From positions 330,260 to 394,259 of the forward strand of contig NMRA01000017.1 of assembly GCA_002633005.1 (NCBI GenBank): DNA of 64,000 nucleotides. The letters run 5' to 3'. Both the position numbers and the translations under genes were made by a program. Shown here piece by piece: positions 14,568 through 64,000 of this stretch. The notes beneath the pieces are model-generated. The model was not told where the DNA came from. It made no database searches and saw nothing but the letters and a program-made list of their open reading frames with translations. Each line of letters begins with the position of its first letter. Position 1 is the stretch's first letter. The DNA comes from Phoronis australis (Eukaryota; Animalia; Phoronida).

Positions 14568-14899
14568 AGAAGTGGCCCTTTGTCAAGATCAATGCAAATT
14601 AACTTTTTAGTCTTTTTGTAATATTTACAATGTACCAACTTAAAACTCAGCTCTCCATATTGCAGACTTTAGCTCTGTGCAAATGCCAGAGAAAAACAAT
14701 TTGAGTGTAATAACGACCTCCATTGTTTAGAAAGTAGTGCTAGTGATTACCTTTCCACTTCATTAGCTCAGATCTACATCAATACAAAGGGCGTGATGAA
14801 TAGATGTGGTAAAAGTTGTCTGGGGCTTAGGGACTCGGAGCAGTAACCAGTGTAAGCCAGAAATTCTCCACATGAATAAAGTTAATGAACTGCACATAA

Positions 14900-15375
14900 C
14901 AGGGCTTGGAATTTTCCGCGGAAACACGGATTTCCGCTTTTTTCAAATGTTCTGTCCACGTAGTTCATTATATTTCCGCGTAAAAAAATGGGATTTGATT
15001 TAAAATTTCCGCGGCAAATTTCTTTCTTGCCGCGACGTTGCTGACGACTTTCACTTCGAAAAGCGGAAGTTGCTCTTTATGTTTCGGAGGAACGTAAATT
15101 GTTATCATTGCCTGGGATAGCGTGGTTTTCTTCAATAGCGTCTCGTGAGATTGTAAATCGTGGTGAGAAATACTACGACTCTGCAGCCAAAAATGTGTGG
15201 AGGTGGGAGTGGACGGACGAGCTAAAATGACACAGACGCATGCTTCTGGAGGTGGTACCTTTTTTTAAGGTCCGCATCAACAAAAATTCAAGGCCCCCAT
15301 TTTCAAGGCTGGGTGCGTGCATGTTTTGGGCTGTAAAAATTTCCGATTTTTTGTCATGGAACATTCCAAGCCCTG
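14900..15375. mobile_element. Non-autonomous TIR element (MITE, hAT-like termini)
   Basis: TIR CAGGGCTTGGAAT / ATTCCAAGCCCTG; flanking direct repeat ACATAA; related copy at 63773. Confidence 0.85.
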
Positions 15376-20520: not shown

Positions 20521-20870
20521 AACTGTGTGCACCTCTTGGTACCACAACTGTACGCACTTCTTGGTGCCACAACTGTGCGTACCTCTTTGTGCCACAACTG
20601 TGCGTACCTCTTGGTGCCACAATTGTGCGCACCTCTTGGTGCCACAGCTGTGCGCACCTCTTGGTGCCACAACTGTGCCTACCTCTTGGTGCCACAACTG
20701 TGCGCACCTCTTGGTACCACAACTGTGCCCACCTCTTGGTACCAGAACTGTACGCACCTCTTGGTGCCACAACTGTACACACCTCTTGGTGCCACAACTG
20801 TGCCCACCTCTTGGTGCCACAGCTGTGCGCACCTCTTGGTGCCACAACTGTGCGCAACTCTTGGTACCAC
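20521..20870. repeat. Minisatellite, 25-bp unit x14 (AACTGTGCGCACCTCTTGGTGCCAC)
   Basis: Direct tandem copies with no spacers; explains the six overlapping repetitive ORFs here. Confidence 0.97.
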
Positions 20871-21377
20871 AATTCAAAATATTCAAATCTGCAAATGTCT
20901 TATTGTTGAAAAATCTATTTCAATGAAACAATTAGTGGGGGGTGGGGGTTGTGGAACTGATGTATTACCAGAATGAACTGGGGTGAACTGGAGTAAGGTT
21001 TTTTAATTTTACAAAAATATTACAAACACACACAATTGTAAATATCTAATTTTCGATAGTAGCTTTATCTCGATGCAAACAAAAGAACAGTTTCCAAACA
21101 AAAGAGCAGTTGCATTTTGATATTACTTTGATAATTTATGTAAAATAGTGAAAGTTTTTTTGTGTCTTAAACTCGAATATCTGGTTCCTTTACATTTCCA
21201 CTCATTTATATAATTTTTTTATGTTTATTTAACATAATACTGAATTCCATATCAAAACGCAATTTAATACCGATGTGCATTTTGGTTAGTACTTAAGCGA
21301 GTTTTGCATGGACTCAAAAATTGGGTTTGTACAATAATCCAGTTCAAAACTCTATTTTTCGGCTCCTTGTAGATGCC

Positions 21378-23426: not shown

Positions 23427-23454
23427 ATGGCACATAATTTATTGATGAGACATG
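23427..23454 (+). CDS. Candidate alternative first coding exon (MAHNLLMRH, phase 1)
   Basis: GCT-ATG-G; 9 codons + 1 nt; strong donor ATG|GTGAGT. Confidence 0.45.
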
Positions 23455-29865: not shown

Positions 29866-31565
29866 TGTGTTTTTCCCCTATAAATCATGTTTTACTGAGG
29901 TTGTTGCAATTTGCACAAACATGAAATTTTCCGCACAGAACTTAAAAATTCTGCAGCTTCTTTATAGCATGTACAGCAGGGGAACTCAGCTTTCAAAAAT
30001 GAAGACTTGGCTTTCCTTGAACAGATCGAGTATTGATTTTTGATGGTTCTCGGTCTAAAAGGCCTTACTGTGTGAGTGCGTGAATTAGACCCATGAGGCT
30101 GTATCTGGAACAAGGCTTTATCAAACATATTCTTTTGTCAGGTGTTTCACATACAGGCACATGGGAATTAATTGCATATCTATGGTAAGATACGCGCGAG
30201 AACTCAGCTATCAAAAAAGAGTGATCTTTTCAAGTCATGTCAAAAATTATGAACAAAACCATTAAAAACGCTTAAAATTTTCTTGTAACATTTAGTATTA
30301 AAATTGTATAGACGTCAACACCTACCATTTTGTAATTGATAAATTTCGTGTAGGATTTCAGAAATTTGCTTGGAGGTTTTACTTAAGTATTTGATAAGTA
30401 TGCGGTAAGTGTAGTCACTTACACTTAATTGCAGATATCGACTGCAACTTACTTTACAGGAGTACACGCACTCCCAGACATGCCCTTGAAGAAGAGAGCA
30501 GAATTCTTGTAAGAATGTTTTGTATGAACAATTCCATGTCTGTGGAAGTTGTTTCCTTGAAAAAAGGCAATCAGATGATTATAAATATCTTGGTTGTTAT
30601 GATTGTAAACAATAAGTTTCTGACATCCTCCAGTATTTTATAAGTAGTCTTGTTAGTTTGTGTGACTTCATGCCTGTTGATGTCACATTTATTTTGTACA
30701 AACAATTCATCATAAGGCATTGAGAGTGGTTTTCTTCTCACATTTCACAAACACTCGACATTCTGCTTCTAAATTCACCTGCTGACCCGTATCTAGTCAA
30801 GTGACCATGGGAGATTCCACGTTATTCAAATGGACCCCCTATCTCAAATGTAGACCCCCTAGCTATTACGTTCTATTCAGTATGTGGACGTCCAAGTTAA
30901 GTAAGCAAGTAACTATCTGTGTCTCGTAATTTTCTAACAGCATCTTTTGCAAGTCTTTAGCATGTTCAGAATAAATAGAGTTAAGATGTGGTGTAAGATA
31001 CAAGGGAAAATCAAAAATTGGTCGGTCTTCAAAACCGCTTGCCTGGACTTCAAAACCAGTCGTCTAGATTGCAAAACTAAATGGCCGGCGACCAAATACA
31101 TTGTCCAGACTTTTGATGGTTTAGGCACCCTACAAAAGGGTCGTCTATTTTAAAACAGAGCTCTAGAGAAGATTTTGTATCCTATTGAGGTAGTGTATTT
31201 ATGGTAGTGTATCTATGAAAGGGTGGCTTTTAATAATGGTGATATGTAACTGTCAAAAAGGGTCGTTATTGTGTTGTTTCTGTGTAGTGGCAAGGACAAG
31301 GCCCTGAGGTTGAAAACAATTTAGTCTTAAGTATTGCACTGCTACTATCAGTCACAAAAACAAAACCATGAAGTCTTTTTTCTGTGATTCATAGACAAGT
31401 GAGTTGTGTGTGCGTGCATGTACGTATGTGATTGCGATACGTGTGTGCAGGGACGTTTTTCTTGTTAATCTTTGCCCATTTTACTAATTTGTTTAACTAT
31501 AGTTTAGTTTCCTGTTGTTACCAATTTTTCAAATACAGTTCCTAACTTGTGTTTAATTGCCTATT

Positions 31566-32492: not shown

Positions 32493-32512
32493 GTACGCTG
32501 CTTTATTTAAGC

Positions 32513-32980
32513 TAAGACTACATTACCCAAGCTTGGACTGTATTATTCAACCTTGGACGACTATGTTATTGAATCTAGGGCTATATTATTCAAGCTTGGA
32601 CTATATTATCCAAACTTACACTATATATTCATGATGAACTTTATCATTCAAGCTTGGACTGTATTATTCCACCTTGGACTGTATCATTCAACCTTGGACT
32701 ATATGATTCAAACTTAGTCTATATGTTCAGGCTTAGACTGTATTATTCAGGCTTGGACTGTATTGTTCAAACTTGAACTATATATTCATGCTTGGACTAT
32801 ATTATTCAAGGTTGTACTATTTATTCAACCTTGTACTATATTATTCAACCTTGGACTTTTATTCAATCTTGGACTATATATTCATCTTTGGACTTTATAT
32901 TCAACTTGGACTAAATTATTCAAATTTAGATGACGTGTTCAAGCTTGGACTGTATTATTCAAGCTTGAAATATATTATTG
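32513..32980. repeat. Degenerate minisatellite, about 20-bp unit (TATTATTCAAGCTTGGACTG)
   Basis: More than 20 diverged copies. Confidence 0.92.
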
Positions 32981-33556
32981 AACTTTTTGGGATTAATTTA
33001 TTCAAGGTTCTAGCTAAGTTAGAAGTGTGGCAGACATTTTTATTTTGGTGCACTTGAGGGTACAGACAGGGGTTATATGTTTATTTTGGTCACCACTCTG
33101 CTAACAAGTTTTGGTTGGTTGTGGAATTCTCAATATGTGGTGTCTATCGATACCCAATGATCATTTTATAAAAACGTGCCTGTGGGTGAATTGACACACA
33201 TGGCTTCAAGTCTATGGATCAATTTGGAGGACTTATGGGCCACGTTGTTTTTTTGTCTTTATTCACTTATTTTAATGCATCCCTCGCATTGAGTTAACCA
33301 ACCAAAGCACATCAACGGAATTATTTTTGTGCCAATGATACAAAGCACACTCCTAAAATTCTCCCAGTATACCTGATACAGTAAGCTTGACCAGCTATCT
33401 TATTCAAATTTGCAGAGTAATCAGGTTAGGAAGAGAAAAGCTTTTCCAAGCTTGAGAGTCGATGTAGAAAAAGGTGACTGGTCCAACAAGCTTTCTTAAA
33501 GATTTTTTACCAACCAATCTCATTTACTTTACTCATCATTTGTCTTTTACAAACTA

Positions 33557-33655
33557 GGTTAGTAAATTAGCAATGGTTAGTAAGTTAGCAATAGTTAGTA
33601 AGTTAGCAATGGTTAGTAAGTTAGCAATGGTTAGTAAGTTAGCAAGGGTTAGTAA
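33557..33655. repeat. Minisatellite, 18-bp unit (GGTTAGTAAGTTAGCAAT)
   Basis: About 5.5 copies. Confidence 0.95.
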
Positions 33656-42476: not shown

Positions 42477-45169
42477 ATTACAGTTTAATTACTAGTGGTG
42501 GAAGCTGTTTACATAGTCCTCCTGGATGGAAACACTATAATATAGAAAAAGAAGCTTGAATCTCCATAACTCTGTCAATACATTCAACATGGTCTATGTT
42601 GTATTCATGTCTACCATCCTTGTTCTTCATTTCCATATGTAAGTCGAGTGATGCATAAGTCTGCAGGGATCCGAGTTCACCAACCAACAGGGCCTCAAAT
42701 ATATGGGTCAGTTTAGAGGAGCTATGGATCAAGTTGGGTTTTTTTATAATATTTTCTTTATAATTCTTTGGGTGACATTGTTCACGTGATTTTGTCTGCT
42801 GTTCCATTAGGTTATGTGTAATTTCATCATCTGGTTTGGGCTGCCCTGTCAGAATCTGGATGTATACTGTGTGCATTATCTATGCGACCAGACAGAAGTC
42901 ATGATTGTAGATACGTTTAGGGTACCCTGGCACTTCCACACAGTTAAAAGTGCTACGTTTCATTGAATTGTGAATATGCAAATGAAGTACTGATTACAAA
43001 CAACCTCGGGTCTTCTGGTGTACCGGAAGCCATCCAAGAACCATTTACCATTACAATCTCGCGAAAGTCTTGTTTTGCGAGACTATTTTAAATGAGTATG
43101 GTAGTATGTCATGGTTACCCTAATAAAACAAGGCACAGTTTTTATTATTTGTTCATTTCAATATCAAATAACGATTGTATAATATTTGGAATTACTATGG
43201 TTTTGTATATTTTCGCACTTGTTTTTAAGTGTATCAGTTGTGGTGTTTTCTTTAAAACTGCAATTTATTTACAAATTGTTTCGTTTCCTGGTTATTCTTG
43301 CATGCACAGTTCTTCTGGAACTCACAAGGTGGCGCTTGCTACAAATTTAAATATTCACGGTTCTAGTGAGACACAACGTCTTTAAGGGAGTTCCACGCAG
43401 TTAGCTAAAAAGCTATAAAGTAATTGTAGTCTATTGTTGTTTGATCACATTGGCTGATTTATTAAATGTCATTTTCCATTTCAATTAACGGATAATATTT
43501 GATTTGAAAAGTGTTGATTTTGCATGAGTCACCTGAGTAATTGTGTTCTCAAAATTGATATGGTTGTATGAAGGTTAAATTGCACATTCTTATGTGATGC
43601 TGTTTGAGCTCAAGTCGATGACCTAATTTTTTATTTCACTGAAAACACATTGGACATCAAAATAATACGCAAAGAAAAAATTTGATGGCGTAACTCTTAG
43701 TGTAGATGCCAAAAAAATTTGAAGTACTTAAAACCCACAAAAGTGTTAACTTTCTGTGACGTAAGAAAATCAGTAAACTGGGAAATTTAATTAAAGCTGC
43801 TAGAACATCAAATGGATAGCGTGTGTGTAAATTGATCGGCTTGGCAAAAGGGCAATTTAATCGAGGGTGGCTTATTGGTAACCTATATATGTAAATTTCT
43901 CATTTTTGCCCGAGGTGCCTCTGTTTAGGCGGCTGTAACACAAAAATTAATTTGATGATGCCACATTTTGTAGTTTGTAGCAGGCAAAGATCAAAATATA
44001 AAATATGAAAGTTTTAGGAAATCCAGCAATAAATCATAACTGTACTGAACCCCCTTGAGCTATCTCAGTGTATCTATTTATTTATTAATTTATTTATTTA
44101 TTTATCAATGAAAAGTTAAGAAGCAATGGCGCACTACTAACTACTAAATTCTGTGCACTTAAATGAATCTCAGGAGAATCAATTTTGCCAAGTTTACTAT
44201 AACAGTAAAATAATTTGCCAATAGATGGAGATAGATGTATTACACATACTTTGGCTTTGTTCTGAATGGTATGAGAAGTCGGGCAATAGGTGGCGCTTGG
44301 TAATCCAGTGCTTACCTGGACTAGTTTATTCCTAACGTAGACTAGTTGACTCCGTTCTATTTTGGCTCATAATTGGTCATAAAAATAATGTGGAGTAACT
44401 TAACAGCAAACTCTGGACCATCCAACAAGGGCACAGATGGGTTCCTTCTGTATTATAACTCTATTTTACTGTCAATTTCACAGTGATGTACGCCTGATAA
44501 CAACATTTATAAGAGAAAATCTCTTTGTACAGTACCCTGGTGTTAATTCACATGAATTGTACAATGAAAACTTTGATCTTGATATGATATTCTGGCCTTT
44601 ATATTATGCTGGTTATAGGATATTTGGAATTATGTATTATGTACAGAATAACAATAAACAAACAACAGTGTTTTAGATATTCCCCACATGCTTTTTAAAT
44701 ACAAAAGTAATGACAGCTATCAGGCTAGTCAATTGACGTGACTTTCCGAATGAAGAAGTCAATTGAGCCAGGAACTTGACAACATTTTCGGCTTGCACAA
44801 AGCCGACTGCACATCAGCCGACTGAGGCTTAAACTGCTTACCATATGTTTGTTTTTTCTAGTTCTGAAAATTCATTGCAAGTTTCATCTCCTACTCATGC
44901 GTAACTCCCCGACTTTGTCTCCAGTAGAAGCTTCTTATTTAGGAAGTACAAGTTTCAACTCATACCCCTGTAGACAATAATCCTTGACTTCGGTTGTCTC
45001 AAATAAACGGAAGGTTGTGCGGTTAAGTGACCAGAGAAGCTAGTTGAAGAAACAATAAGTGACCAGTATGCTCATCACGTAGTCGTCAATTAATTATGAA
45101 TGTTTGCTTCTGTGTGGTATCGGAACACCTCTTGAATCCTTCTGTGAAGTGTTTGGAGTTTTTAAAGAA

Positions 45170-45212
45170 ATGCCGTTTTACTTAATACGGTTTTACAACC
45201 TTTTTAACAAAG
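45170..45212 (+). CDS. Candidate alternative first coding exon (MPFYLIRFYNLFNK, phase 1)
   Basis: GAA-ATG; 14 codons + 1 nt; donor AAG|GTAACA. Confidence 0.4.
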
Positions 45213-47466
45213 GTAACATTTTTATGTGGAAAAGTTAAAAAATCGTAACTGACTAATTAAGGCCCACTTCAGTCTTAATGGTACTACTAACGGACTTAAC
45301 GACATTACTAATTACCGTCAATTCTACATTAGACCAAGAATTAACCATTGCAATCAATAAAGTGAATGAAATTAAATGAAGCAATGGAGTTGGAATAAAT
45401 TCTTTGTCATGTGCAGCCATTGTTATTAGTCCCAGATAAATGCGTTTTGTTCTTGCTGTATTCTAGTTGATTGCTGCACAAGCCTGTATGCAGTAGGCTG
45501 GAACTAGTCATTTATTCATCACCATACTCTTTGTGAATTATGAAACACTATTTTGTGCTCTACTCTGCATATTGATTTTCCTGTATGCCCGCATACTGGC
45601 GGAGAACCTGCTCAATTAGACACTATCACTGCTTGACGATTCTAACGGAACTTCATTTAATTACCAATAGCAGTAATTTGTGCGAAATCTAATTGTGTTG
45701 CTCTCCTTGCTTTTAAAACTGATTTCTTTTTTCTTGTCTGAGTGAACTGTCGTGACATTCTTTTCCTAACCCTGACACAGACTATTAGTCATTCATTCTG
45801 ATTAGTTGCTGATACAAAATGGTGATGTGGTTAATCTGAGGAGAGATAAATAAAGTATGAGTACAGTTTGTGTACCTTGTCTTGACACAACACCTAACCA
45901 TTGCAGCTAACCAGCTGTTGTGTTTATGCACAATGCTGTCTGCTTTGGTTGTTCAGGAACACCAGCGACATCTGCCTGCGTTAAGTGAACCTAGCATTGC
46001 ATAGAAACTACTGTTCATGGGCAAATCTCCTGACATTGGCGCTGAAATTAACAGGAAGACAATGAACTGGATTCAGGTGCCTGCATCCCCTGTAGTGCTT
46101 GCCCGGTATCACCCCGTCTGACCCCCTCCCCCAGTAATAATCAGTGCGTTTGAACAGTGTCTGACCCCCTCTTCGAGTAACAATCAGTTTGTTTGAACAG
46201 TGTCTGACCCCCATCCCCCAGTAATAATCAGTGCGTTTCTACTGTTGCTGGCTTATTGATCTACTCTCTAATCCCCACCATCTCTTTTAGCCTCTGACTG
46301 TTTATCTACAAAGTCAATCGACTTAAGTAAGGGAATGTGTCTCTTGCTAAATTGATGGTAATTCAGTCACTACTGAGAGAAGGTCGCATGGATTTAAGTG
46401 CAGAGTTTCAAGTCATCTACTCTATTTAGGTTTCTACTGAAATTAAACAGTTGTACGTAACTGTAACTAGCCTGCTTAAATTGGGNTAGTCATGGGTGGG
46501 TAGCATGAATATTAGGCAGTGTGCTGCTGAAACCCGGTTCATTTCTCAAAGGTGAATTTTGTACACTTTGGGAACTAAAATTCACATGAGAGAGGTATTC
46601 ATCAATCACGGTTGCTCTCAGATTTCGATGGCGTCAATTGGGGTTGAGCATTAAACCTACTTTCTGTCAGAAAACCAAACTTCTGATTGAAGTCATTTAC
46701 CATTATGAGATATGTCTATAATTGTTCCTTTAAGTCAAAATAGATGTGATTTCTCGGCTTGCAAAGAACTGACAGATTGTTTATTTTATTTGGCAGCATG
46801 ATTTCAAACAGTAATGAACTGTCTTTGCAAATCACTGAGCACGATGAGAATTGATTTTTGGTCCAATTGCAATGAACTAACAGTTGGTTATTTCTTGAGA
46901 CCATGTTTCGGTAAATAAAATGACGCTCGTGAGAAGTCACCTTTAGAGATACTAGTCTAGAACAAGTGCAATCACACGTACTTTGATTGAGGAACAATAT
47001 GAGACTACTTTGATAGGGGTACGTGATCAAAATCAAGACATGTTTTGTGACTGAAAGTGTCTATAGTTCTTTAAAGTGTCTTTAATAGTTCCAGTGAGAC
47101 AAGCTTTATGAAGGTACCTGTAGATGTACTTAATGCAACTGCCATGCATTATTCAACAGTCATATGACAGAATACTCCAATCTTACTAATAATAGTTGTT
47201 CCAGTATTTTCTTTGTCCTATGCATATATTTTCCAGCCACTGCTACATTTCCTCTGTGTTGAGTTAAATCTCAATCCCCATGTTGGTTGCTTAGGCAATT
47301 GTTGCATAATTAATTTCCATCAGGGACAGAAAAACAAGTTACAAGCATTCAATAAATTTCTGTGAATCACTTTGTATTAAAGCTTAACCAAGGTCACTGT
47401 CATTCGAGGCCATGATGATTTTGTGGGGAAAACTTTTTCCCTCATAAATACATTCATTCGTTAGGA

Positions 47467-47503
47467 ATGAAACCGCCCGCATACAAGGCGAACAGCAACT
47501 CGT
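47467..47503 (+). CDS. Candidate alternative first coding exon (MKPPAYKANSNS, phase 1)
   Basis: 12 codons + 1 nt; junction TCGT|GTGAGT identical to the 41200 exon; local CpG enrichment; X-box-like GTTGCTTAGGCAAT at 47286-47299. Confidence 0.6.
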
Positions 47504-48894
47504 GTGAGTGACAGGTGGTGGGGCGGGGCCATGTTTTTTTGCTTGGAAAGTTGAGTTCTGTTTAGCTTAATATTTGTTTTGTGTGCTGAACAAATCTGAC
47601 GTACGTGTTGCACAAATAGCAGCCGTACTGAAAGCGGTCGTGTAGTTTTTATAAATTTGAAATTTTTATAAACAAAATGCTTTATTATGAGGAAGTCTCA
47701 TTAGGAACCACTGTCACGGTTCAGTAACTGCAGAAACATGCAGATTCAGATTTCATATTAGATGTACACAGAGTCCCTGATTTTCTGCTTTCAAAAAACA
47801 GAGAAATCATTTTTAGCAAATCATAAAATTCTGTCTGGTGAATTAACAAATTCGGTTTTGCTATTCCAAACTAAGAGATCAATTATGTATATGCCTAATT
47901 ATTTCCATGGCATGTTTGCTACAGTTATGTTTTACTGATGTATTTTAAAAAAAGTTATGCATGCTCTGTTAATTGTTCGTAAAACCTGAAAAAGAGCAAC
48001 GCCAAAATGAAACAAAAACTACTAAAGTGTTTACTGCAAAATAATCATTGATCCAGAATTTGCCATCAGGTCAGAATACAAATTTATTATGCGAGAGTCT
48101 TGGGTAACAAATTTAGTGGTTTATATTCTTAATTTTGATTACTATATAAATTGAAAATAACAGAATCCTGATATCTGCTGCTGAAATATCTGAATTGTGT
48201 TTGTTCAGGACAGGAATCATTTTAGAAGAACAGGGGTAAGGGTGAATTAAGCCATACAGCTTCAAGTTTATAGGCCAGTTTGGAGGACCTAAGGGTCATT
48301 ACAATTTTACTTCCAATTTTAATGGAACTGTCGGATGGAAAGAGGAAGTAATTGTTGTGCCCAAGACACGGGTCATGTTCCTAAAGTGATGCCTGTCAGG
48401 GTCTCTAAACATGGCTGTTTCACTGATGATCACAGGGTGGATCCTCCCAATGCTGTATAATCACTGACAGCTCTCGGGAGCCCTGTAAACTCAGTATGCT
48501 AACACGTAAACTCAGCTAACCGGCTAACCGATTGACAAACATGGTGCCTTGACTGAAAAACATGGTGCCGAACTCTCAAAACACAACTTAGGCACACAAA
48601 ATCTCCCGACTCACAAACACAGCTCACTGATTATTTAACATGGTACCCAGGCCTGGAGTCTGTAAAACATCTTTGTGGGTGATTGTAATGTGTTTTTGGG
48701 CCCGTAAGCTGTGTTTTGTGAGTTGGGCGCTGCAGTTGTTAACAATGTGTCAGAGCCATATTTTCAAATTCATTTACATTAAAACTTTTCATAAATTTAC
48801 ACTTTAGAAAAAGCTTTAGTCACATTAAGTTATGCTTTTTAGTCTCCAAAGTAACAGGACATGAGACTGCATTTAAACATTTTTTCCAGAAATT

Positions 48895-49564
48895 GACTAG
48901 GTGTCTGTATAATAGTGACTGACTCCCAAGTGGTACATTAGGGTAAAAATGACTAGGGCTCTATGTCTTTGTGATTGATTCCCAAGTGGTACATTAGGAT
49001 AAAAATGACTAGGTATCTATATCTTAGTGACTGGCTCTCAAGCGGTACATTAGGGTAAAAATCTAAGTATCTATATATTAGTGACTGACTCCTAAGAGGT
49101 ACACTAGGGTAAAAATATCTAGGTATCTATATCTTAGTGACTGACTCTCAAGTGGTACATTAGGATAAAATGACTAGGTATCTATATCTTAGTGACTGGT
49201 TCTGAAGTGGTACATTAGGGTAAAATGACTAGGTATCTATATCTTAGTGAACGATTCCCAAGTGGTACATTGGGATAAAAATGACTAGGTATCTATATCT
49301 TAGTGACTGACTCCCAAGTGGTACATTAAGGTAAAAATGATTAGATATCTATATATCTTATTGACTGATTCCCAAGTGGTACATTAGGGTAAAAATGGCT
49401 AGGTATCTCTTCTGTAGTGACTGACTCCCAAGTGGTACATTGGGGTAAAAATGACTTGGTATCTATATCTTAGTGACTGACTCCCAAGTGTTACGTTATG
49501 GTAAAAATGACTTGGTATCTATTCCGTAGTGACTGACTCCCAAGTGTTACATTAGGGTAAAAAT
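48895..49564. repeat. Minisatellite, about 56-bp unit x12
   Basis: GACTGACTCCCAAGTGGTACATTAGGGTAAAAATGACTAGGTATCTATATCTTAGT repeated head to tail. Confidence 0.97.
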
Positions 49565-50673
49565 GTCATCAACTTAGGGCAGACACTACTGACAGACTTG
49601 TGAACATTCATTGTTATTAGCGATAAGTAATACCAAATTAATGCTTCACCAACTACTAGTCGTTTGTTAAAGAACATGGACTCAGTTTCAGCAATGTTTG
49701 AACCACTTGAAAATGTGAAAAAATACATTCCTGGTAATTTCTTTGGAATTGGTTTGATTTACTGTGTTACTTCCTTCCAAAGAGTTACTTGTAGATTTTC
49801 CCTATCTTGCAAACACAGAAGTCAGTTAAAGGCTGGGTTCTAAAGCAGCTTATTGCTAATGAAGTCTACCTTCAAATCCCCATATTGAGGAATTAAGCTC
49901 AAAATGATCAACCTGTATTTATCCATAGTTCTGAGTGGCAGTGCCATGCATGAGTGGTTAAACTGATGGAGTGGCTGAGTAGCCTGCAATTGTTGATTTG
50001 ACTCCATGTAGGCTTTAAGTGCAGCTGTAATCAAATAGAAGTGTTTGTCAATCATCAGTATTCAGGTGAGATGTATTGATGCTCTCTTTCACTTGTGGCT
50101 GTGACCCTCTCTGGACTGGCTGTTAATTCATTGCTGGCATAGCAGCAGGGGTGTATTGGAATCTGTGAGTGGACCCTCTAATTACTGAAAGGAAGTAATA
50201 GGCTCAACGTTAAGGATTATTCTGTGTTGTTGTTGTTAACGGTTTTTTAGGAGCCGACAGACAATACAACTTACGCTCGCTTGCATTGTAATAATAAGGA
50301 TACGGCTTAGTACTGTTTGCCTGTTGGTATTCGCAGAGAAAACTGGCTTCGAATTAGCATACAGAGGCATTGTGGATGTGTGGGTCTGGATATTTGCTCG
50401 AATATTTTGTTTGGATATTGTTAATACAGCTGAGTGCCTGCAGACACGTTACCTGCCAGTCCTCCAGTCTGGCTGCAATACAGTGGTGAAAAGATATTAA
50501 CAGTGGATCTCTCATTGGTACAGCTGCATCTTGGTGATATGTCATTAACTACATCAATGTTGATTTGAAGCTGATGCAGCTATAGCAGACTGTAATTAGA
50601 TGACATTAGTCCTGTCAAGTGATTGATTCAAACAATTGATTCGGCCTCATTTGGAGTAATTTGACTTACCGCG

Positions 50674-50755
50674 ATGGCCGATGGATCATTTGCTCAAAAC
50701 ATTTTGCAAGCTTTTGGCATTGAGAAGCTTCCCACATTTGGAAAACAAGATAAAC
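50674..50755 (+). CDS. Alternative first coding exon (MADGSFAQNILQAFGIEKLPTFGKQDK, phase 1)
   Basis: GCG-ATG-G; 27 codons + 1 nt; donor AAC|GTAAGC; paralogue at 54056 differs mostly at synonymous sites. Confidence 0.9.
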
Positions 50756-51634
50756 GTAAGCATATGATGATGTGTTTGAGAATATTTTTGTGCATAGTTC
50801 GTATTGTTAGATTTTCCATGTTTTATATTTATTCGTCTCTGTTATTCACCTTTTATGCGTATATTTTGTCTCGTGCATATTTACTGGAACTATTGGTTTC
50901 CACAACTTATTTTTGCTTAGAATTGTTCATCAAGGAGATGCCTAGCTAGTTACGTTAGATATGGTAGGGGTGTCTTCGTCCATTGGGGGTTTGAGAGAAT
51001 ACCCCTAGAATTTTTTTGGACGTTAATAGGTATTTTCCTGCATTTGGAGAAAGTCTTGTCATTTCACCCAATACACAGTGGGATTATTAAGGCTGATAAC
51101 AGGCTGGCCACATGGGTTAAAAAGTGGACGCAAAGTTGGCTGTGGAAATCAAAAGAAAAGCCAGTGCTTCGTTGAATCGGCCAGTAACGATGCTGACACA
51201 TACAGTCAGATATGCTTGATGCCATTGGATGCTTCTATGCATCATTTTAAACTGGATCTCAAAAGCTCAACCATCACTCAAGTGTTAATGCATTTAATCT
51301 TTTAACTCGATTTTACTCCCTGTTTTGCATATCTCGATTTTACTCCCTGTTTTGCATATCACGCTGAAATTGAGATATACATTAGTCACAGCTTCGCACA
51401 TAAAGCCATGAGCCTTCTGCCCATAAATATGGTAACGTTGATTGGCTATTATTTGCTCGATTATTTCTAAATATTATTCTATTTTTCTTTAAATTTGTTT
51501 TATCCTATGAAGGACCTTAGATGAATAAAAAGCACATTAACTTGATGTGCGATATTAACGGCCACAGAAGTTTTTATCTTTTGCTGACCGACAATACTTT
51601 CCTTGTTTTTAACATGGTTGGACATACAATCTAA

Positions 51635-51798
51635 AATCCCTGTCTACACGCCGCACTGGGATTTCTTGTGTGCTGCTTGGTATACGACTTTTTACCTGGA
51701 AAAGTCCAGTTGGAGCACCTCTCTACACACTTCGAGTCATGTATGACACATGTACTGAATACGATGAACAAAAAGTGGGAACTCGTGTACACAGGACT
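51635..51798. mobile_element. Small TIR element (PIF/Harbinger-like ends)
   Basis: AATCCCTGTCTACACG / CGTGTACACAGGACTT, flanked by TAA. Confidence 0.5.
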
Positions 51799-53894
51799 TA
51801 AAACGCATAAGAAATTTTGATGTGATAATACATAGAAATATTTCTAAATGTTCTTGATTGGTGCTGTAATCGTTGTTCAATTTTGCATAAAAATGATTCC
51901 CAAAAGTGTGACTTTTTTCATTTATTTTATTTAAGTTCTCAGAATTTCACCAAACTTTTTTAGGTGTTCACTGCAAACCTGGCTAATGATGAAGCCATTA
52001 GTTTTCATTAATCATTTTAAGTTCTATTCTCTCCCATATTTTGTGCTCAACTAAAAAGATAATTCACACCAGGTATGCTGAGTAAAATTTACCTTTTCCG
52101 TCTGTTTGATATTAAAATGCATAGCTTCGTTACCTTAAATATGTTAATCTTTTGGCGCTCTCAATAATTAAGTGGTGTGTGTGTGTGTGTGTGTTGGTAG
52201 TACTCTGTTTCGTGCATGTATTATTCATATGTAGGAGATTGCTTTTATCACATATAGTTAAATCTTCTTTTAAGTCTCTGTGGTGGTAAATAAGAACTTC
52301 TCAACTCACAAATTGGTTGTGAACTCCATTTCCTTATCAAGAACACATTATCTAATTCACTCGATCACATTAAGATTGCCAGGGACAGTTTGTATCAGCT
52401 ACTTCATTTTTGCAATCACAACTAAAATTCATTTTGCAAGGTACAAATTTGGCATTGTTACCAAATTATGATGTTAGGAAAACGTGTAAAGTGTGGCTGT
52501 AGTAAATGTCAAGTGCTTTACTGATGGCTTTATTTGATGTTGTAGTAGAAGCATTCTGACTGAGTGGCCAGTCTCCTATGGCCACACTTCACCATGTGGT
52601 TGTAGTCAGGCCAGGTGCTTCTAAGAGCTCAGTTAAAAGGTGTTCACTTAACAGCTCTAATTAGAACCGATCATTTGATCTTGAGATGTAAGACTGTCCT
52701 GACCTTTTTGCCTTTCTAGATCTTTCTCATCCTGAAGGTTTAAAAGGTTTTTGGTTTTGTAAAGGCTCTGTAATGCGCGGGTCTCGAGGTGTGGATTTAG
52801 TAACATGAAACTTATGAAGACATCTTTTATGGCAAATTGAGAGAATGTTGAAACTTTTATAAGCACATTACAAAATAATGAAAGAAAACGGTATTATGAA
52901 GTGTTGTGTGGTCTCAATGTCACGCTCACAAAGGATTTCTTTTTGTAGTTTATACTTTATATTTATTAATAAAATACAATTATTCTGAACACTTGCCTTG
53001 CATTAAAAGAGGTCGATTTCTATGCTACAAGCAGTAGTAGTGGTATTTATTTGCTGGGATGCATTCTATTCATGAATCAATTTCCAAAGTCTAACTGTTT
53101 ATAAGTCCATAAGACCCGATTTTCCTTATAAAATAAACCCTTTCAAAATGCACCTCAATTTCTGACTAATTTCCTTTTTGCAAAAACCCAAATCCTATTA
53201 CATAATTTCTTTTAGTTTCATCTTAAGAGTTGTCAAGACTTACTAATGGGTTTTCCACCCACTGTGGATAATTGACAAAAGAATGGAAATTGCAATGCAA
53301 CATGTTAATTAAACCTTAAGCACTGGTGCTGTTAATGATTTTGTGTAGTTCTGATAACTGCTAAATAAATGTAGATGTTTGTCAAATGTTTTCTGGTGAT
53401 TGACATGCCTATGTAATTAAAAGTTTTGATTATTTCTTTGACCGTTATGCACACAATGGACTGACAGGTGGAAATTTAGGTCATCTCAGCAAATGTGAAC
53501 TGAGAAACTTTATTCCGTTTTAGCATGGCGTGTGTAGTGCTGCCATTAGCAAACAATACTTGGTAATCACCATTTCCTGCAATTTTGGCAATTACATCTG
53601 AGGGAATTGTAGTTTTTTTTAAAACATTGTTTGATAAAATTAATAAGGTTTCTTTACATATTATTCTAATTATTGATCGTGATTCACTATATTATTTTGA
53701 ACTGTGGCAAAGCTTGACCTAATTAAACACTCAGTCCCAGTCCCTGTTATGAAGGTGCTAATGCACAACTCCAATCAGTCTTCCCAAGGGGACCCTTGTT
53801 ATGGCGGTAATTTGCAAATGCCAACAGCTATCGTTACTTAAGTTTTAATTAACTAGAACAAGGCATGTCGGTTCCTGCTAGCATTTATAGGCGT

Positions 53895-54016
53895 ACTGAC
53901 CATAGAAGGCTTGATTACTTGTACCAGCGCAACAATACAGTTGGGGTGTTCTTTATCACTTCTGCTAGCCGCACTGACCATAGAAGCCTTGATTACTTGT
54001 ACCAGCACAACAATAC
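53895..54016. repeat. Local tandem duplication (78-bp period) just upstream of the 54056 ATG
   Basis: ACTGACCATAGAAG.CTTGATTACTTGTACCAGC.CAACAATAC at 53895 and 53973. Confidence 0.9.
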
Positions 54017-54055
54017 CATAGAAGTGTTGTGCACCTTTGCTGCTTCACTGTAGCC

Positions 54056-54131
54056 ATGGCTGATGGTGCTTTTGCACAAAACGTTTTACAGGCCTTTGGA
54101 ATTGATAAACTACCAACCAAAGAAGATCGCA
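54056..54131 (+). CDS. Alternative first coding exon (MADGAFAQNVLQAFGIDKLPTKEDR, phase 1)
   Basis: GCC-ATG-G; 25 codons + 1 nt; donor GCA|GTAAGC; 18/21 residues identical to the 50674 exon. Confidence 0.9.
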
Positions 54132-54364
54132 GTAAGCTCTTTGTACTTTTTGCTTTTTATTTGAGATAGCCCTTCAGTTCTTCTTGGTTTACAGCTGTGG
54201 GGAATTGTCGGTGGAGTTTTGTAGTCTGATAGGTGGTGGTTTAGTCTGTGAGACACTGATCTAACTGGGATTGCCACTTGCAGTTCTCACTTTTCATACT
54301 AGAGGAGCCAGATGGGATTTGTAGATCTAGGTCTACTGATGACAAAGAAGCAATGGAAATAATT

Positions 54365-54730
54365 TGGAGAGAGTCAGGGGTGGGAGACAAGTAGAGAGGG
54401 AAGGTGTTAGAAGGTTGGTGAGAGAAAGAGAGAGAGGGGGAGGGAGAGAGGGAGAGGGAGAGCGAAATTGAGGAGGAGGGAGAGAGAAAGGAGAGATAAG
54501 GAATNGGAAATGGGGGAGACAGAATGTGAAGGAAGGCTGAATATGGGGTGTGGCAGAAGGTGACGGAAGGAGTCGGAGATAAAGGATGTCTGAGGGGAAT
54601 TGGGAAGAACATATAGGAAGGTGTTGGAAGCCAATTGGATTAAACTGGAAGGACAGCAGGGGAGAGGGAAGGGAGCGGTGTGGTGTACAAAAGGTGGATT
54701 AGGAGAGTGCAAGGCAGAAAGAATGAAGGA
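54365..54730. repeat. Purine-rich (GA) low-complexity tract
   Basis: Strong G/A strand bias with GAG/GGA runs; contains an N. Confidence 0.85.
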
Positions 54731-55577
54731 TTTAAGTTCAGTGTTCTGCTAAGTGAATTTGCATTGGCCAACATCACCTCATAATGGAAATCATACTTTA
54801 TGTTAAACTTGAAGCCAATCAGAAGACAAAAAATTGGTAGTATTAGACGTCCAGTGATACTTCTGTCTTCTGATTGGCTGAAACGCAGTATGACAGCTTG
54901 CGTTAACCAACCGAGAGCGAAATGTCACTTTTCATTCACGCCCTCTCCAATATCAGGTGTTACTGTTCACAATCTGACCAATCAGACACTGTAGAATTCA
55001 TAAACTCTAATCATGAAGCGAGCAGACATCAACGCATCAAAGTAGATTAGAGCAAGCTGATCATCTAACATGAGACAAAAAATCAGAGGAAAGAAGCATC
55101 AGTGGTCATGTGATCAAACAATTGACCGATCTTTTGGATGTCTCAGACTCTCAGGTCATGTGGGCCTTGCCGGAGAGCAATATTGTTGAGTGCAATATTG
55201 GTCTCCTTTGGTGCATATGACCTGATATTACACTCGGGATCAGTCCATATTTGGATATAGGATTGCTCAGATAAAATGTTATATTTCACGCTACAATGGG
55301 CTGAAGTTAATATTGTATTGATCTTCCTGTTTAGCTGAGGTAAGATAGTATATTTCTCCTCCTTTAAGCTGGAGTAATATTTGTGTCGTTCCCATGTGAA
55401 AGTTCTCTAAAAAATCCCAGTATATATTCAGCAGGAGAGATGTTTGCATATTTATGTTTGCAAACAAAGGTCACCTCTGAGGCATAAATCTCTACACTAA
55501 TCCTACAAATGCAAAAATTGTCCCAGTAAATATTTTCATCTTAGTTGAACAGCAAAATTAGCAATAAAAGGAAAGAT

Positions 55578-55734
55578 AAATAACACATTATAAATAACGC
55601 ACACTGTAAATAACGCACACTGTAAATAACGCACATTGTAAACAACGCACATTGTAAATAACGTGCATTATAAATAACACACATTGTAAATAAAAGACAT
55701 TTTAAATAACAAAATTTTAAATAACACACATTGT
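55578..55734. repeat. Minisatellite, 16-bp unit (AATAACGCACATTGTA)
   Basis: About 10 copies. Confidence 0.93.
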
Positions 55735-56562
55735 ACCTGCTATTTCCTGTAGGATGTGTCCCAACTTATAATATGTCTAGCCTTAAAGCAACGCAATAGG
55801 GGACTTACTTGACTTGTGTTCGCCATAGTACAGTCAAAGCCCCAAGTCAGTGCTCTGATACACCTGGTGTAATGTGGAATTTGAATATTTCAATGGGGGG
55901 AGGGCATTCAAGACATCCTGTACTTTGTGACTTTTTTATTTGTTTAATTTGGTATGTAACTGGTGTTATCAGCCTTACGTATGTCAATAGGAGATACAAA
56001 GCTTGCATTCTCATTACATGGGGACAACGTATTATTAGAAATAATTCCTGTAAAAATATTGCTGTGAAGTTTCTGAGATTCTGAAATACACGGGAACACT
56101 TTAAATATATTCCCCCTTGTATCTTGAGTGACAATGTATTTCATATGTGCAGCTGGAGTAACATCATATTTCACGATGTAGTTAGAATATTTTATTTCTG
56201 CCCTCCAGCTGCCAGTGACATTACGTTTCACTACAACGAAAGTTATTCTACATTATTGATCATCAGTGTTTCTTGTTCAAACACAACATTCAAGGGAATG
56301 AGTGCTTCCTATTTTTTAAACAAAAACAAATTCAAATTCTATGTATGATGTCTATTATTCATTCATGTTAGACAATATTACAACTCCACTTGCGTCAATG
56401 TAGCCTTATCAGCTTATATACTCTCTTCACAAGTTTTTAATTTTCAATAGACTCTGTGTTTGTCCACTAATCAATATTAAGGTATTTACCGGTACTGTAG
56501 AAACTATTTTCTCATTCAGATTTAAAGAAAGCACTGCATTAGTCCATTGATTTAATATCGTA

Positions 56563-57254
56563 CCGTACTTGTCCAAATTAACGTCCATGCTCATCTCACA
56601 CAAGTTCCAATGCTTGGCTTATCACCCCCCCCCCCAAATTTATACGGTCTAGACTTCTAAGTGCCTTCGTCTTAGTGAACGCACATCACAGCAGAATTTT
56701 GGCTCCAAAAGAGCCTACCTTTGGGTCACAGTCAGTTAGTCTCGGCAGAACCTTGCCTTTAAGTTGGTTGGAGAAAATGCTTATTACGTCCTGCTCTTTT
56801 CTAAAGGAGATATGAAATGGTTGTTTCGGCTTGCGAGCATTCTAATATACTTAATGAACTATGACATAAACCTCATTTATCGTACTTGGTGTGTCAAAAA
56901 CAGTGAAAGAAGCGCATGGTCAGCTTAATCAGTACGCACAATGCTCATTTTCGGAAAGTTAAGAATACACTGCGTAAAAGCCAGGGTACTACTAAAGTAC
57001 CATGCGGGACCACTCCATTATTCTAAAGGGCAGGCCCCTTTGTTTACAATCTCCTGGTGTTTTATTTGGTGCTCGAGCAGAAAGTATGATGTCAATGGTG
57101 CTTCCGATTGATCGTTTGGACAAGCGACCTCCCCCCCCCCCTCGACTTCTCAGAAATGTCTATTTTGACAGATTCATGCCTGACTTCTTGTCCATCTTCA
57201 GATTTTTGAGTGCCACGATTGAAGTGTCCTGGGTAATAATCCAGATGAGTACGG
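56563..57254. mobile_element. Non-autonomous TIR element (Tc2/pogo-like ends)
   Basis: TA-CCGTACTTGTCCAAATTAA ... TAATCCAGATGAGTACGG-TA. Confidence 0.7.
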
Positions 57255-57815
57255 TAAAAAGCTCCTTGAATTTACTGTTTGAAACTTGCCATCTAAGAGA
57301 TTTAATTGTATGAATATTGTATGATTGAGTGCTTTGGACTGCTAGGTCACTGACACGGATGCGTGGTTGATGTGTGTGAAGACATGATAATCCCCCGTTT
57401 GTCGTACTAAAAATTTATAACCTCATAAATAGTGGCTTGATTAATTTTCCATAAATGAATGATTGTAGTATACGTTCTCTGGTATCAGCAGGTGATCTGT
57501 TCTATAACTACTCTCTTCGCATTGGTACGAGCGGGTCTATCAGTCGCTTATAAGTGGCTTAATACCATGCATCAATAGTGTGACATTTGGCTTATGAGCT
57601 TTTGTCTTGAATTATGCGTTGCTCCTATGAAACCTTGTCAGAGAAAGTCTAACAAAGTGAGACACAGGCACAATAAAATTTTGAGCTGGATTTTTATGTT
57701 TTTGTCTACCTACATAGTGGTATAGTACTCAAACGGCAAGCAACACTAACTTCAGGAATCACGTTTAATGAAATCCCGAGTTATAGCATGTTTGTAATGT
57801 ACAAGAAGAGTTTTA

Positions 57816-58244
57816 AGCTGTATTTACTTGAGAGACAGGCGACCGACCCGGCACAGCTAACACGGAACAGCTGCTCCAGTGCAAGTGTGTGTGTAAACAC
57901 AACTGACACGGAGCGAGTGACTCAGCGGCGACCAGTTTTTAACACCGGTTTCATAGGTTGAGCGAGTTACACACGATCAGTTGCTCCAGCGTCAACTGCA
58001 TGTCTAAACACAACTGGGACAGGCTGGAAAGGGATCATCTTTCAATGCACTTGCGCAGTAGCTTGTGTTCGGGTGAACAACTGGCATTCCACGTGGTATG
58101 GACATTCGCTATTGTTTATACGAGCGTGCACAGACAATATTTTGTAAGTGATTCCTGCTGATCCATTGTAAATGCAACTAAAGTGGAGCAAGTCGTCCCG
58201 TGGCCACTGACACGGTGACAACTGCCTCTCGTGTAAAAGCGGCT
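57816..58244. mobile_element. PIF/Harbinger-like MITE
   Basis: Imperfect TIR AGCTGTATTTACTTGAGAGACAG / CTGCCTCTCGTGTAAAAGCGGCT with TTA flanks; internal GTAAACACAACTG and GACACGG repeats. Confidence 0.65.
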
Positions 58245-58331
58245 TTAGTATGCTGGTTATGCCAAGGAATAGTTATGGAACGACTGTGATGTTTGAGAAT
58301 GGTTTTAGAATTGTTATGATGTTAAACGATA

Positions 58332-58631
58332 CAGTAAAAACTCTTCAGTTTGGCACAGTCTCAAAAATTTGGGACTCCAGACTTGAAGCCAAAATTGAAT
58401 CTACAGATCTATAGATTGTTGTTTGGGAGATTTGTGCGTTCATCATATTTCTCAGGTATTGGACACTGCATTTTACACCACAAAAAGCAAAAATAGACAT
58501 CGCAAAATTGCTGTTTGTTTGTGATAGTAATTCTTGAGTTTGATATGGTCATTATGACCTGTTTCTAAAGTTCCATTACCTTGAGCAAAATAATTGATTT
58601 TTCACTGGCCCAATCTGAATATTATTTACCC
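58332..58631. mobile_element. MITE family A, copy 3
   Basis: TA-CAGTAAAAACTCTTCAGTTTGG left end; colinear with 22975-23318. Confidence 0.7.
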
Positions 58632-60301
58632 TAGCTTTAGAATATCTCTGGGTATTGAAGAATAGTTTTAGCTTTACTTTAGGGTTGAAGTAAGAAAACC
58701 GACACCAAATCATTGCGCGGCTGTGAATGATGCATGTATTCATTATGTCTATTTGACACCTGCTGTGAAAGCAAAATATGTGACCAGTCTAGAAGTACTG
58801 TTTTCTGTTTGGTTGTGGATAGTGGTGACACCTAGTAACTATGTCTGTGACTAAACTTTGATTTACCTATTTGTCTATAGATGTCTCTGTACTCCTTAGA
58901 AGACTAGATTACATGAGTATGCTTGAATAACTATCGAGATAATTGCTTTTGCCTGTGTAAGCAGGATCAGAAAAAAAAATGAAAGCTCTCAGTTTGGGTG
59001 AAGTGTATCGTTAAGATGCGCTGCTTTAATCAGAAATACCTTTTTGTGACTTTTTGAAATGATTGCCATATTGAGTGGTTTGTGCTTTCACGTGTTGTGA
59101 CTGATCAAATTGAAATGAGACAGTAATGTGCTTGCTGTCTTGCTACTTCTACCAATACTTGCTTTGTTGAACTTTTTCAGCATCATTGACTAATAAGATG
59201 ACTGACTACTGGAGCCTGTGTCTATTGATGCAGCACGTGTATTGATCGGAGGTCATAAATGTTGATTTAAGAAAAGCCTACTCACACATATCTAGTTATT
59301 TAGGTTTGTATGTTATGTTGACTAATGAGTTTTGTTAACAGTTGTAAACGCACCAATCAATGAGCTATCCCAGTTTCAACAGATCAATATAATCATATGG
59401 CCTTAAACCTGTGCTTTCTGACAAAAAAAATCTTTGATGCAGGGTCATTTGTTATCAGTCATAAATTTGGTCTTCTCTGGTTCCTTACTCAGTTTAAAAG
59501 TGATCTCTGTACTCGGGAGGTGTAGAGAGCTCTGACAGTCTGTTATTTCTTCAAACCAAGCTCATAAAATTTCATGTAATGTCATGACCTGAAATTTTGT
59601 GAGTTTCAAGTTGCCCTCAAGCAATAACAAACTCAGTATATGGGGGGGGGGAGCTATGTTGACTTTGGACCTCTCTTGCAAGAGTCAAACAATCAAATAA
59701 GACATCAGCAGATTTTAGACAATGTAGCGAGGGGCATGGCGTCTAGAATGGACTGATCACGCACAGTTGTTAGGTATTATGATATTGCTTTTCTTGATGT
59801 GTGTCTTTAAATTTCAATTTTGCGATAACATGACACACATAATAAGCTGGCCGTGCACTGCTCAGTGAAATGCATTCTCCATTTTCTGAGTATGATTATA
59901 TTAGAATGCGGAGGAGCCACAGGGACCATGTCTCCTTCATTACAAAGCCCTAGAGTACGTGTACAATATATATTCCCACCTGTTAAGGCAAAGTTGCACA
60001 GAAACTGATTGATGGTTAGGCCTACTCAGAGTTATGGTCTAGGAAGTGTGTTTTTGTGTTTTATATTTATTTTTTTCAATCAAAAAGAGTTTCACATAGG
60101 TTTATGTATTACCATTTTAATAGTGCTTTGAACACGAATCAGAAATTTCCAACTTTCACAATATTAGAAAATGAAGATGAAGATTCGCGACATAAAGGTA
60201 TACTTTCCTTGATATGTTCACCAACTTCACCGGTCTTATTTTATGCTTAATTTAAAAAAAAAAATTAAAAGTGAGAGGGTTTTCTGTAGCACCCTCATTA
60301 C

Positions 60302-60317
60302 ATGTGGCACCAGTTGA
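60302..60317 (+). CDS. Weak candidate first exon (MWHQL, phase 1)
   Basis: 5 codons + 1 nt; donor TGA|GTGAGT; very short. Confidence 0.25.
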
Positions 60318-63300
60318 GTGAGTATCGTAATGCATGAGTCAGCTGCCACTCAATACGGTGGCTATGTTTGGTGGTGCTGCACCACCAAAAATAAAAATTA
60401 AACTAAAAAATGTCAATTTCAGTTGTTATGTTTGAAAATATTTGGAGTTGTATTGAATGAGCATTATATGGGCTTAGGCTTTGACTGAACTTGCATTAAA
60501 TTTCATTTTATAAAGTTCTTAAATTAAGTAAGAAGAGTATCTTTAATGTTTTCTAAGCTAAGGAATATGGACTTGTCACTTTTTTGGAGTAAAACTGTAA
60601 ATGAATTAATCATGTTTGCTGGATTTAGAAGAAAATCTACTAGACCGTAGTATGTGTTGATTTATCAAGTTGTCATAGAGTATTGAAACTGAGTAGCTTA
60701 TGAGGAAATGTCAGTGAATTATATTATCGATAGGCATATCGATGTCGTCGTGTTGCGATTTCGCATACTCAGGTCTAGCCTGTTGACTGCCTCACCCATG
60801 GACTGCCTTACACGTGGACTGCCTTGTTGGTCACTCATAAGGCAGGGATTTTTTGACATTCCGTTTATGAGCTTCTAGAGAAGATAAATGTAAACTATTA
60901 TGTTCTGCATGCATTATTAAACAGGTCAAAACACAACATTGGGACAGTGAAGTGATTATGTAACTTATTTATCTGGGATACTGCTGTTTACCTATCTTCT
61001 AAGCCCACCATCGGCATTGAAAAGTGAAAATTAGGAAATTTCTGAGGGGGGGGGGTAAACTGAGCACAGGCATTAAAATCTGACTACTAAGTTGACAGGT
61101 TTATGTAGAGGTAGTTGCTTTTGCCTTTTGTGGATTTTGCTGAGGCATCACAGAGACTTGTCCTTATGTTTATTGTTGGCACTCAGCAAAGTGTAATCTG
61201 TGTGCATTGGATTTCTCCTTCGTCAATCCTTTAAGTAACATTAATATTTTATCACACATTGCAGTTTGCAGATTATTGCATACTGAAAAGTTCACAGTGA
61301 ATCTTTGATAGAAATCCAGGCATCCAACTTGGTGTTGCTATCTGCTGTTTATAGTTCTTATAATATTACGGAATGCTTTGAAGAAGAAACTACATAGTAG
61401 GAGGATTCCAACTGACACAGCCTATGAGAATGGTTCTTGTATCATGATGAACTTATTCGTCCTTGAGAATTAAACTGCTCGTGCAGTTTCACAAGGATTT
61501 CAGACTACACTGAGCCAAATTTGCGATTTGATTTTCTTGTAATGTTTAGCTTAGACTGCTGATTTAGGTTGGCCTGTTGGGGGTGGTTGTCCAAAAACGT
61601 AATCAAATATGATAAGCCACATTCTACAAATGGGCGCCACTGCTGTTCACCCCCAGTGCATAGAAATTCTGTTAGGCGTATGAAGTTAATGTCCTGAACA
61701 ATGCTATTTAAATTCTCCTTGTATTAACGTTGCCATGGTGATTGCTAATGGACAACGGAAGGGTCGACTGATTCTGAACAAAAAAGTGTTGTAGTTTTGA
61801 TTGTATCCTCGGCTTTAATGTGTAGGCTTGTGATATGGCAATTCTCGCTGAGGATTGTGTTTGGCTGGGTTATTGATGTTGAATTTTGTGTTCGATTTGT
61901 TTATTTATGATCTACACATCTTTAAGATATCAGTGTAAAATTGATTGACATCTGAGAGGAATGCCCTGAGGCTGAGGACTACCTTCATCTGTTTACCTGT
62001 GTTTATTGAAGCATATTTGATAATCACATATCCTGCATCAAATGCTGGCACATTAGGACTGTGCACACATGTTTTTGATGTTTTGTTGTGAAAGATACAG
62101 TACAGTCTCCAAGAGGATGTCTATCGTATAATGGTGTGAAATAATATGGATGTATTGGGCCATCATCTGGTGTCTCAGGACGTGTACATTTGATGAGTTC
62201 ATGTATATGGATAACTGTAACGAATTGTCAGAGTAGCGTGACATCATGGTGAAAACTGTGAATACCACTTGATATTGTTGATTGTTCCGTGAGACCATCT
62301 AATCCATTACCTTGCCACTATGGGGAGTAACTTGGATAAACTTTCTCGTGAAATCATGTGTAAGTATTGTTTGCTCGATATTTCTTGTCATGGCCTCACA
62401 AACTTAGACAGATGGTGAATTTTGTAATGTTAAATATCCCGTCAATTTTTCTGTCGGAAAATATCCATCATGCTGTTTTGTTACGAAGAAGTTGAGATAC
62501 AGACGATTAGTACTTGTCAACACGTTCAGGGACGATTGAATGGTGATCTCACAAACCAAGACATAGACATTACACTGAGTATGACTGTTTAAGAACAATA
62601 TTGTTGACTAGTTGAACGACTGTAATGCATTGATAATGGCCACTAACTGGGATCGACATTTTGAGAACCAGTTTTTACGATGAATAATAGGCATCAAACT
62701 GGTTCTATAAGTCTGGGACCCCTGTAAATGCTTGCTGAGGTGTTTACCCGAATGGTGGATTCAGGTAACCAACCCCCTAAAATAGCTTCATATACCTCAG
62801 ACTTACATGCAAGAGTCAACCAGAACATACAAGGCCAGTATGAGTGTTGTATCTCCTGGATACTGAAGGATGTCAATAGAATTTGCTTCCTCAAAATTGG
62901 ATAACTTTTTACATCTTAGGAGCTAAGACTCACAATAGACGAGCTTTCAGCAAGACATGATGGTCCTTTCAAGGAAGTCTTGATGATATATTTTGTGGTA
63001 GGTTTTAGTCGTGGCCGTTGAAAGATGACCGTTAAGCTGAACATTAGTGTACGCATATCTTTTGGTGGAATCAGTAATATTATTGAATTCATGTTGATAC
63101 ATTGCAGCAATGGTAAAATAACAAATCATTATGTATAAACATAAAATAATTTGCATAACTTTAAAGTTTATCTATTGAGGTATTTTGAGTGACGTCAATT
63201 GGATGTCTGCAGTCTAATTAATATTACGTCATCCTTTTGTGTACAGCTTGCAATGTGCTCTAGTCTACATGTACTTCATGTGTTTCATGGTTACTGTGCA

Positions 63301-63772
63301 GGTTTTCATCACTTATTCATTGTGGTTGATGCTAACCTCCACTTAGATTGCTTGACAGCTATTAGTCCCTGGCATGATAATAGCTTCAGCCAGTAGCCTG
63401 CACTCATTCTGTGAACTCTACATCTGACATCATTTTTTTCTTTTCTAGGATATCAGTTTCAATATTGATTTGTTTCTTGAATCTTTATGCTGTATGCACA
63501 TGTTGCCATTTGGTTGTTAGTTTGTGTTTTTGTCAACAGAGGGGATGTACCTGCATATGTGTTAAAATATCCAGGATCGGGGCCAACTGTGTGGCTATCA
63601 ACCTTCCCCAGGGATTTTTTCTGCTGTGCTTTATTCATGCGGTGGCTGTCGTGGAAACTGATTTAAGATTGATTTTTTTTTCATTAAATCTGCTGTTGTC
63701 ATGATGAATTTTTCAATTAAAGCACAAAAAATGAATAATATGGCCGTGGCTAACTTACAATCATCCCAGATA

Positions 63773-64000
63773 CAAGGCTTCGAATTTTCCGCGGAAACGT
63801 GGATTTCCGCTTTTTTCTGTTATTCCCTCCGCGTATTTTCGTTTTACTTCCGCGGAAAAAAATCGGATTTGCTATAAAGTTATCGCGGCAAATTGGTTTC
63901 TCACCGCGGCGTTGCTGACGGCTCTAAAAGCGGGAAGAGCTCTTTATGTTTCGGAGGAACAAAAATTGTAATTGCGGATCACAGGCGCTCGAATTTCCCG
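63773..64000. mobile_element. Second copy of the 14900 MITE, cut by the window edge
   Basis: CAAGGCTTCGAATTTTCCGCGGAAAC..GGATTTCCGCTTTTTT and GCTCTTTATGTTTCGGAGGAAC colinear with 14900-15100. Confidence 0.9.

Follow-up and report, generated by a model that had tools for sequence, protein, structure and literature searches.

A pair of old tandem duplicate start exons in Phoronis australis, probably of a KChIP gene

Why should a stretch of animal DNA carry, some 3.4 kb apart, two start exons that encode almost the same short N-terminal peptide, and to which gene do they belong? An earlier note, made from the letters of this DNA, had answered the first half of the question with an old exon duplication, held by purifying selection and translated in both copies from two promoters. 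In the present analysis of the window (the whole stretch of 64,000 nucleotides), we confirmed the positions of the two look-alike exons, hereafter A and B, the starts of which (50674 and 54056) have 3382 nt between them, and both were found to run in phase 1 up to the same donor, GTAAGC, after 50755 and after 54131, respectively.

50674..50755, + strand: coding part of exon A, 27 codons plus 1 nt, MADGSFAQNILQAFGIEKLPTFGKQDK, phase-1 donor GTAAGC; six reads exit after 50755
54056..54131, + strand: coding part of exon B, 25 codons plus 1 nt, MADGAFAQNVLQAFGIDKLPTKEDR, phase-1 donor GTAAGC; no reads in any of four runs

Of the 21 leading codons, 7 match outright, 11 show silent differences, and 3 change the amino acid (S/A, I/V, and E/D, all conservative), which reproduces exactly the counts given in the earlier note. 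The codon alignment and substitution ratio proposed there as a check yielded a strong synonymous excess, with pS at 12/14 = 0.86, beyond correction, and pN at 3/49 = 0.06 (Fisher p = 2.6e-8, start codon excluded, a test somewhat inflated by the choice of the pair on protein likeness). Third codon positions account for 13 of the 15 mismatches (p = 3e-5). The likeness, which begins in B at the Met, reaches up to the donor once a two-codon gap is allowed, and the exons align better than 200 of 200 shuffles; in the 400-nt flanks, described earlier as dissimilar, we likewise found no likeness beyond shuffles (p 0.82 upstream and 0.11 downstream). A and B are thus homologous, in tandem, and in the same phase, with a conserved peptide, as tandem duplicated exons are defined, and they constitute a genuine tandem duplicated N-terminal exon pair, a type of event already known. 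Since the synonymous sites are saturated while merely three conservative changes have accumulated, and since replacements would be far more numerous in a copy that had long evolved neutrally, both exons appear to have been under purifying selection for most of their history, which supports the earlier proposal.

That the likeness might instead reflect a dispersed repeat or chance is scarcely credible and by now largely refuted: the third-position bias and the exact splicing at A (see below) speak against it, as does the lack on A and B of any pile of divergent reads such as the true repeats at 53267-53300 and 63776-63817 attract, although the copy count that would bear on a repeat covers the window only. 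Within these 64,000 nt, no third copy of A/B was found. A phase-1 exon-like segment with A/B-like hydrophobic spacing at 5035-5089 (+ strand) was considered for that place and rejected, ranking 12th of 969 with a score of 4 against about 81, which is not significant.

As for transcription, four RNA runs of the same species label (X1-X4) were consulted, the three raw ones among them being read to about 18-19% each. In the stranded run X3, in which 27 of the 51 placed reads were at least 95% alike to the genome, sense-strand depth spans 50105-50755, that is, exon A together with a leader in front of it, the bounds of which are read-depth bins, the transcript start not being mapped.

50105..50673, + strand: leader transcribed in front of exon A; X3 bins at depth 1.4-7.9, every first mate on the minus strand (sense)

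For this leader, X3 lists neither a joint nor a loose end on the upstream side, and no good acceptor lies near the ATG of A. Five short upstream reading frames, from five upstream ATGs, occupy 50376-50626 of the leader, each closed before the main ATG. At the other end of the exon, six X3 reads part from the genome precisely where the donor is predicted, after 50755, so that the splicing at GTAAGC expected by the earlier note holds for A on the + strand; these six reads, from one run, are the whole support for the junction, no A-donor junction appearing in X1, X2, or X4. Both of the two read-versus-genome differences in the coding part of A are synonymous (chance about 0.04). Past the donor, the 30 loose letters carry the phase-1 frame on without a stop, giving NDLDDLEMQ once the split codon is passed. 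Because no joint from this donor is listed within 44100-64000 and the motif is absent from all six frames of the window, the splice must skip B, as all six junction reads do, and at least 13,245 nt altogether. Exon A is therefore spliced to an exon beyond the window, past B and past a further candidate, C.

Alternative first exons are a familiar route to alternative protein front ends, and the A/B pair appears to be part of a larger set of this kind, including candidate C at 62320, which the earlier note had missed.

62320..62359, + strand: candidate exon C, 13 codons plus 1 nt, MGSNLDKLSREIM, with Gly2 and a start codon in strong context, phase-1 donor GTAAGT
30807..30900, + strand: a less strong candidate for a phase-1 first exon, with 31 codons, Gly2, and GTAAGC; from sequence only
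48640-48703, + strand: further strong-start phase-1 exon-like segment, no reads
23427-23454, + strand: further strong-start phase-1 exon-like segment, known from the letters only

The sequence of C is unrelated to those of A and B. Reads lie just upstream of it, at 62155-62272, in X1, X2, and X3, in the sense direction wherever strand is displayed, part of this depth being due to a repeat near 62656-62711; among the loose ends listed, none is a splice junction of C. We scanned the window for ATGs in strong context that stay open up to a phase-1 donor, comparing the other phases and strand as well as a fifth-order null, and obtained 7 phase-1 loci on the + strand versus 1, 1, 0, 1, and 1 in the other five strand and phase classes, and versus a null mean of 0.47 (maximum 2 in 60). 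This excess is to be read with the phase-1 filter having been set only after A, B, and C were known, and with one of the 7 loci being tandem repeat and 48640 being without reads. The locus at 33573 was rejected, as it lies in a tandem repeat. Additionally, the base skew (T over A and G over C) is positive in all eight blocks of the window, which fits one long gene on the + strand.

The window also holds a dispersed repeat (63772-63972 and 14899-15105, 79% alike) to which RNA reads from the three raw runs match in part by the hundreds, and minisatellites at 48890-49565, 20521-20872, and 32502-32983, with periods of 56, 25, and about 20, respectively. On the + strand, an open stretch of 157 codons (13877-14347) has Cys/His spacing reminiscent of the terminal part of a non-LTR retroelement ORF.

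Which gene, then, do these exons serve? The residues NDLDDLEMQ appear similar to the opening of the common core exon in KChIP1 and KChIP4, in the same register from the phase-1 junction, and the start of candidate C presumably resembles the myristoylated starts of neuronal calcium sensors. On the strength of these nine residues, the gene is quite probably a KChIP (Kv4 channel-interacting protein), and the shared exon downstream of A would open the KChIP four-EF-hand core. According to the accessible part of PMC3973911, KChIP genes have a common 3' exon set preceded by multiple starts or alternative 5' exons, and myristoylation is frequent among invertebrate KChIPs; in mouse Kcnip4, as the accessible part of PMC13175019 has it, start codons lie in five exons across 1.1 Mb. 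The locus would fit such an anatomy, with A spliced to an exon farther on, B and C in the same phase, and a surplus of phase-1 candidates.

None of the searches connected the three sequences with any protein, KChIP included. Protein searches gave no candidates for the 40-aa read-through of A, and 0 of 8 and 0 of 3 candidates scored for the A plus B alignment and for the read-through of C, respectively; a library of 1.84 billion sequences returned six matches, all from repeated matching, of which the one inspected was a simple repeat. The PDB gave nine chance-level matches for A/B (E at least 0.17) and none for C, Pfam 0 of 2, the Atlas no match for A or C, and metagenome contigs and Rfam no matches; a bacterial EF-hand protein tried as a bridge to KChIP led to calmodulins in all of the best 60 of 411 matches. 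These blanks weigh little, because the queries were short and partly intronic. Nevertheless, they leave the databases without a confirmation, and nine acidic residues carry little information, which is what might be said for the same anatomy belonging to some other gene whose alternative first exons are in phase 1 and include a myristoylated one. We regard this as improbable, since the residue pattern, the junction distance, and the phase fit KChIP as it is known and as PMC3973911 describes it, and so does a sister exon with Gly2.

Exon B, for its part, showed zero read depth in all four runs. The blank is weak, because A itself showed up in just one of the four runs, thinly covered, and because 18-19% is all that was used of each raw run. 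B possesses, unlike A and C, which have no comparable site, an acceptor-like AG directly in front of its ATG.

54052..54053, + strand: acceptor-like AG followed, after two bases, by the ATG of B, in frame with a phase-1 upstream exon; in the top 3.6% of the AGs of the window

The ranking comes from a crude acceptor score devised for this analysis, and use of the site is unobserved in the reads. Directly upstream, at 53888-54044, lies a two-copy tandem repeat of 78 nt, each unit ending near an acceptor-like AG. As judged from its sequence, the AG at 54052-54053 would permit in-frame splicing of B behind another phase-1 exon, and B may therefore be an internal exon of the same gene, placed behind a non-coding leader or an upstream phase-1 coding exon; a transcript running A-B-core would then contain two copies of the module. 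We consider this unlikely: the AG is pyrimidine-rich in its approach and in frame, and vertebrate KChIP transcripts take 1 to 2 alternative 5' exons each (PMC3973911, accessible part), but all six A junction reads pass over B, the homology with A begins precisely at a Met that B has kept together with a strong start context, and the acceptor score is crude. Far less probable still is that B, functional for long, was recently silenced; the lack of reads in four of four runs would agree with it, whereas the ATG, the frame, and the donor are all intact, and A is itself so thinly covered. B is likely used elsewhere. The proposal of two promoters with both copies translated thus stands in part: A is transcribed and spliced, while for B, blank in every run and bearing an in-frame acceptor-like AG, transcription and a promoter of its own are putative.

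With somewhat better than even confidence, we conclude that A and B are old tandem duplicate start exons, likely of a KChIP gene, and that each is likely spliced alone to the shared core exon. What would the conserved peptide do? In A as in B, residue 2 is Ala and Cys is absent, which leaves neither a Gly2 myristoyl nor an N-terminal Cys palmitoyl anchor, and we rejected a transmembrane stretch on hydropathy, the best 19-residue Kyte-Doolittle values being 0.36 (A) and 0.46 (B). Lacking all three, the two would fall into the "cytoplasmic" class as it is given in the accessible part of PMC3973911. The strong conservation of 21 residues despite the lack of an anchor suggests a binding role. AlphaFold, run on the two-row A/B alignment, placed a helix at residues 5-13 (mean pLDDT 72, pTM 0.30); amphipathicity was rejected as support for it, the hydrophobic moment lying within shuffles (p 0.20 and 0.26).

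These observations suggest a scenario in which the use of A, B, or C would be decided by separate promoters, the choice of promoter fixing the N-terminus of the protein. C would yield a myristoylated, membrane-anchored form and A or B a non-lipidated one, in which the 21 conserved residues would hold the short helix. By analogy with the N-terminal helix of KChIP4a, the most likely role of this helix would be to tune Kv4 gating or trafficking; possibly it folds back into the hydrophobic groove of KChIP, as the KChIP4a N-terminus can fill KChIP's own groove in vitro (PMC3973911; PMC6104694; accessible parts of both). B may have been retained because other cells or stages obtain this module from it. 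A bolder thought, decidedly doubtful in our eyes, is that A/B represents an undescribed class of KChIP N-terminus in invertebrates, a regulatory helix that is soluble, carries no lipid, and is akin to the inner half of the inactivation-suppressor domain of vertebrates. If so, the module would be older than the vertebrates and older than its transmembrane part, and the in-frame acceptor of B would even permit a doubled module.

The present study adds an unannotated exon (B) and probably puts a name to the gene. If it is indeed a KChIP, the diversification of Kv4 auxiliary N-termini via many first exons, mostly studied in mammals, extends to an invertebrate and includes exon duplication. The 21-residue peptide, near-fixed against saturated synonymous sites, is a ready target for tests of A-current gating, and as a conserved non-lipidated N-terminal helix it is of modest interest; the surprise is limited, as the class of event is well known.

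How do A and B compare with known systems? Around the Phe-Gly of A/B there may be a faint likeness to the KISD/KID N-termini. Like those of KChIP4a, KChIP2x, and KChIP3x, as described in the accessible part of PMC3973911, the A/B N-terminus is encoded by a single first exon and has a conserved, predicted helix and possible Kv4 action or groove fold-back; unlike KISD, it has no transmembrane stretch and no aliphatic ER-retention run, so that by its residues A/B is outside the transmembrane KISD class. Our literature search, which left most subscription papers outside, found no report of the peptide or of invertebrate KChIP first-exon duplicates, and neither is mentioned in the accessible parts of PMC12823592, PMC4713065, and PMC10377897. 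Among the human tandem duplicated exon substitutions (PMC9741552, Martinez-Gomez et al. 2022, accessible part), 40 of 236 events lie at the N-terminus, and KCNIP4 has an event too, its position not being given there; the homologous tandem exons and conservative changes are shared with A/B, whereas the locus here is an invertebrate one and use of the second copy is unobserved. From the vertebrate KChIP1-4 genes (KCNIP1-4), finally, A and B differ in being near-twin paralogous exons 3.4 kb apart, without a lipid anchor and with the core outside the window. They would resemble them, as far as the accessible parts of PMC3973911 and PMC13175019 describe these genes, in having several short coding exons at the 5' end, each with its own start, a common core, and a spread over a long region, and, according to the former, in one myristoylation-type start, to be compared with candidate C.
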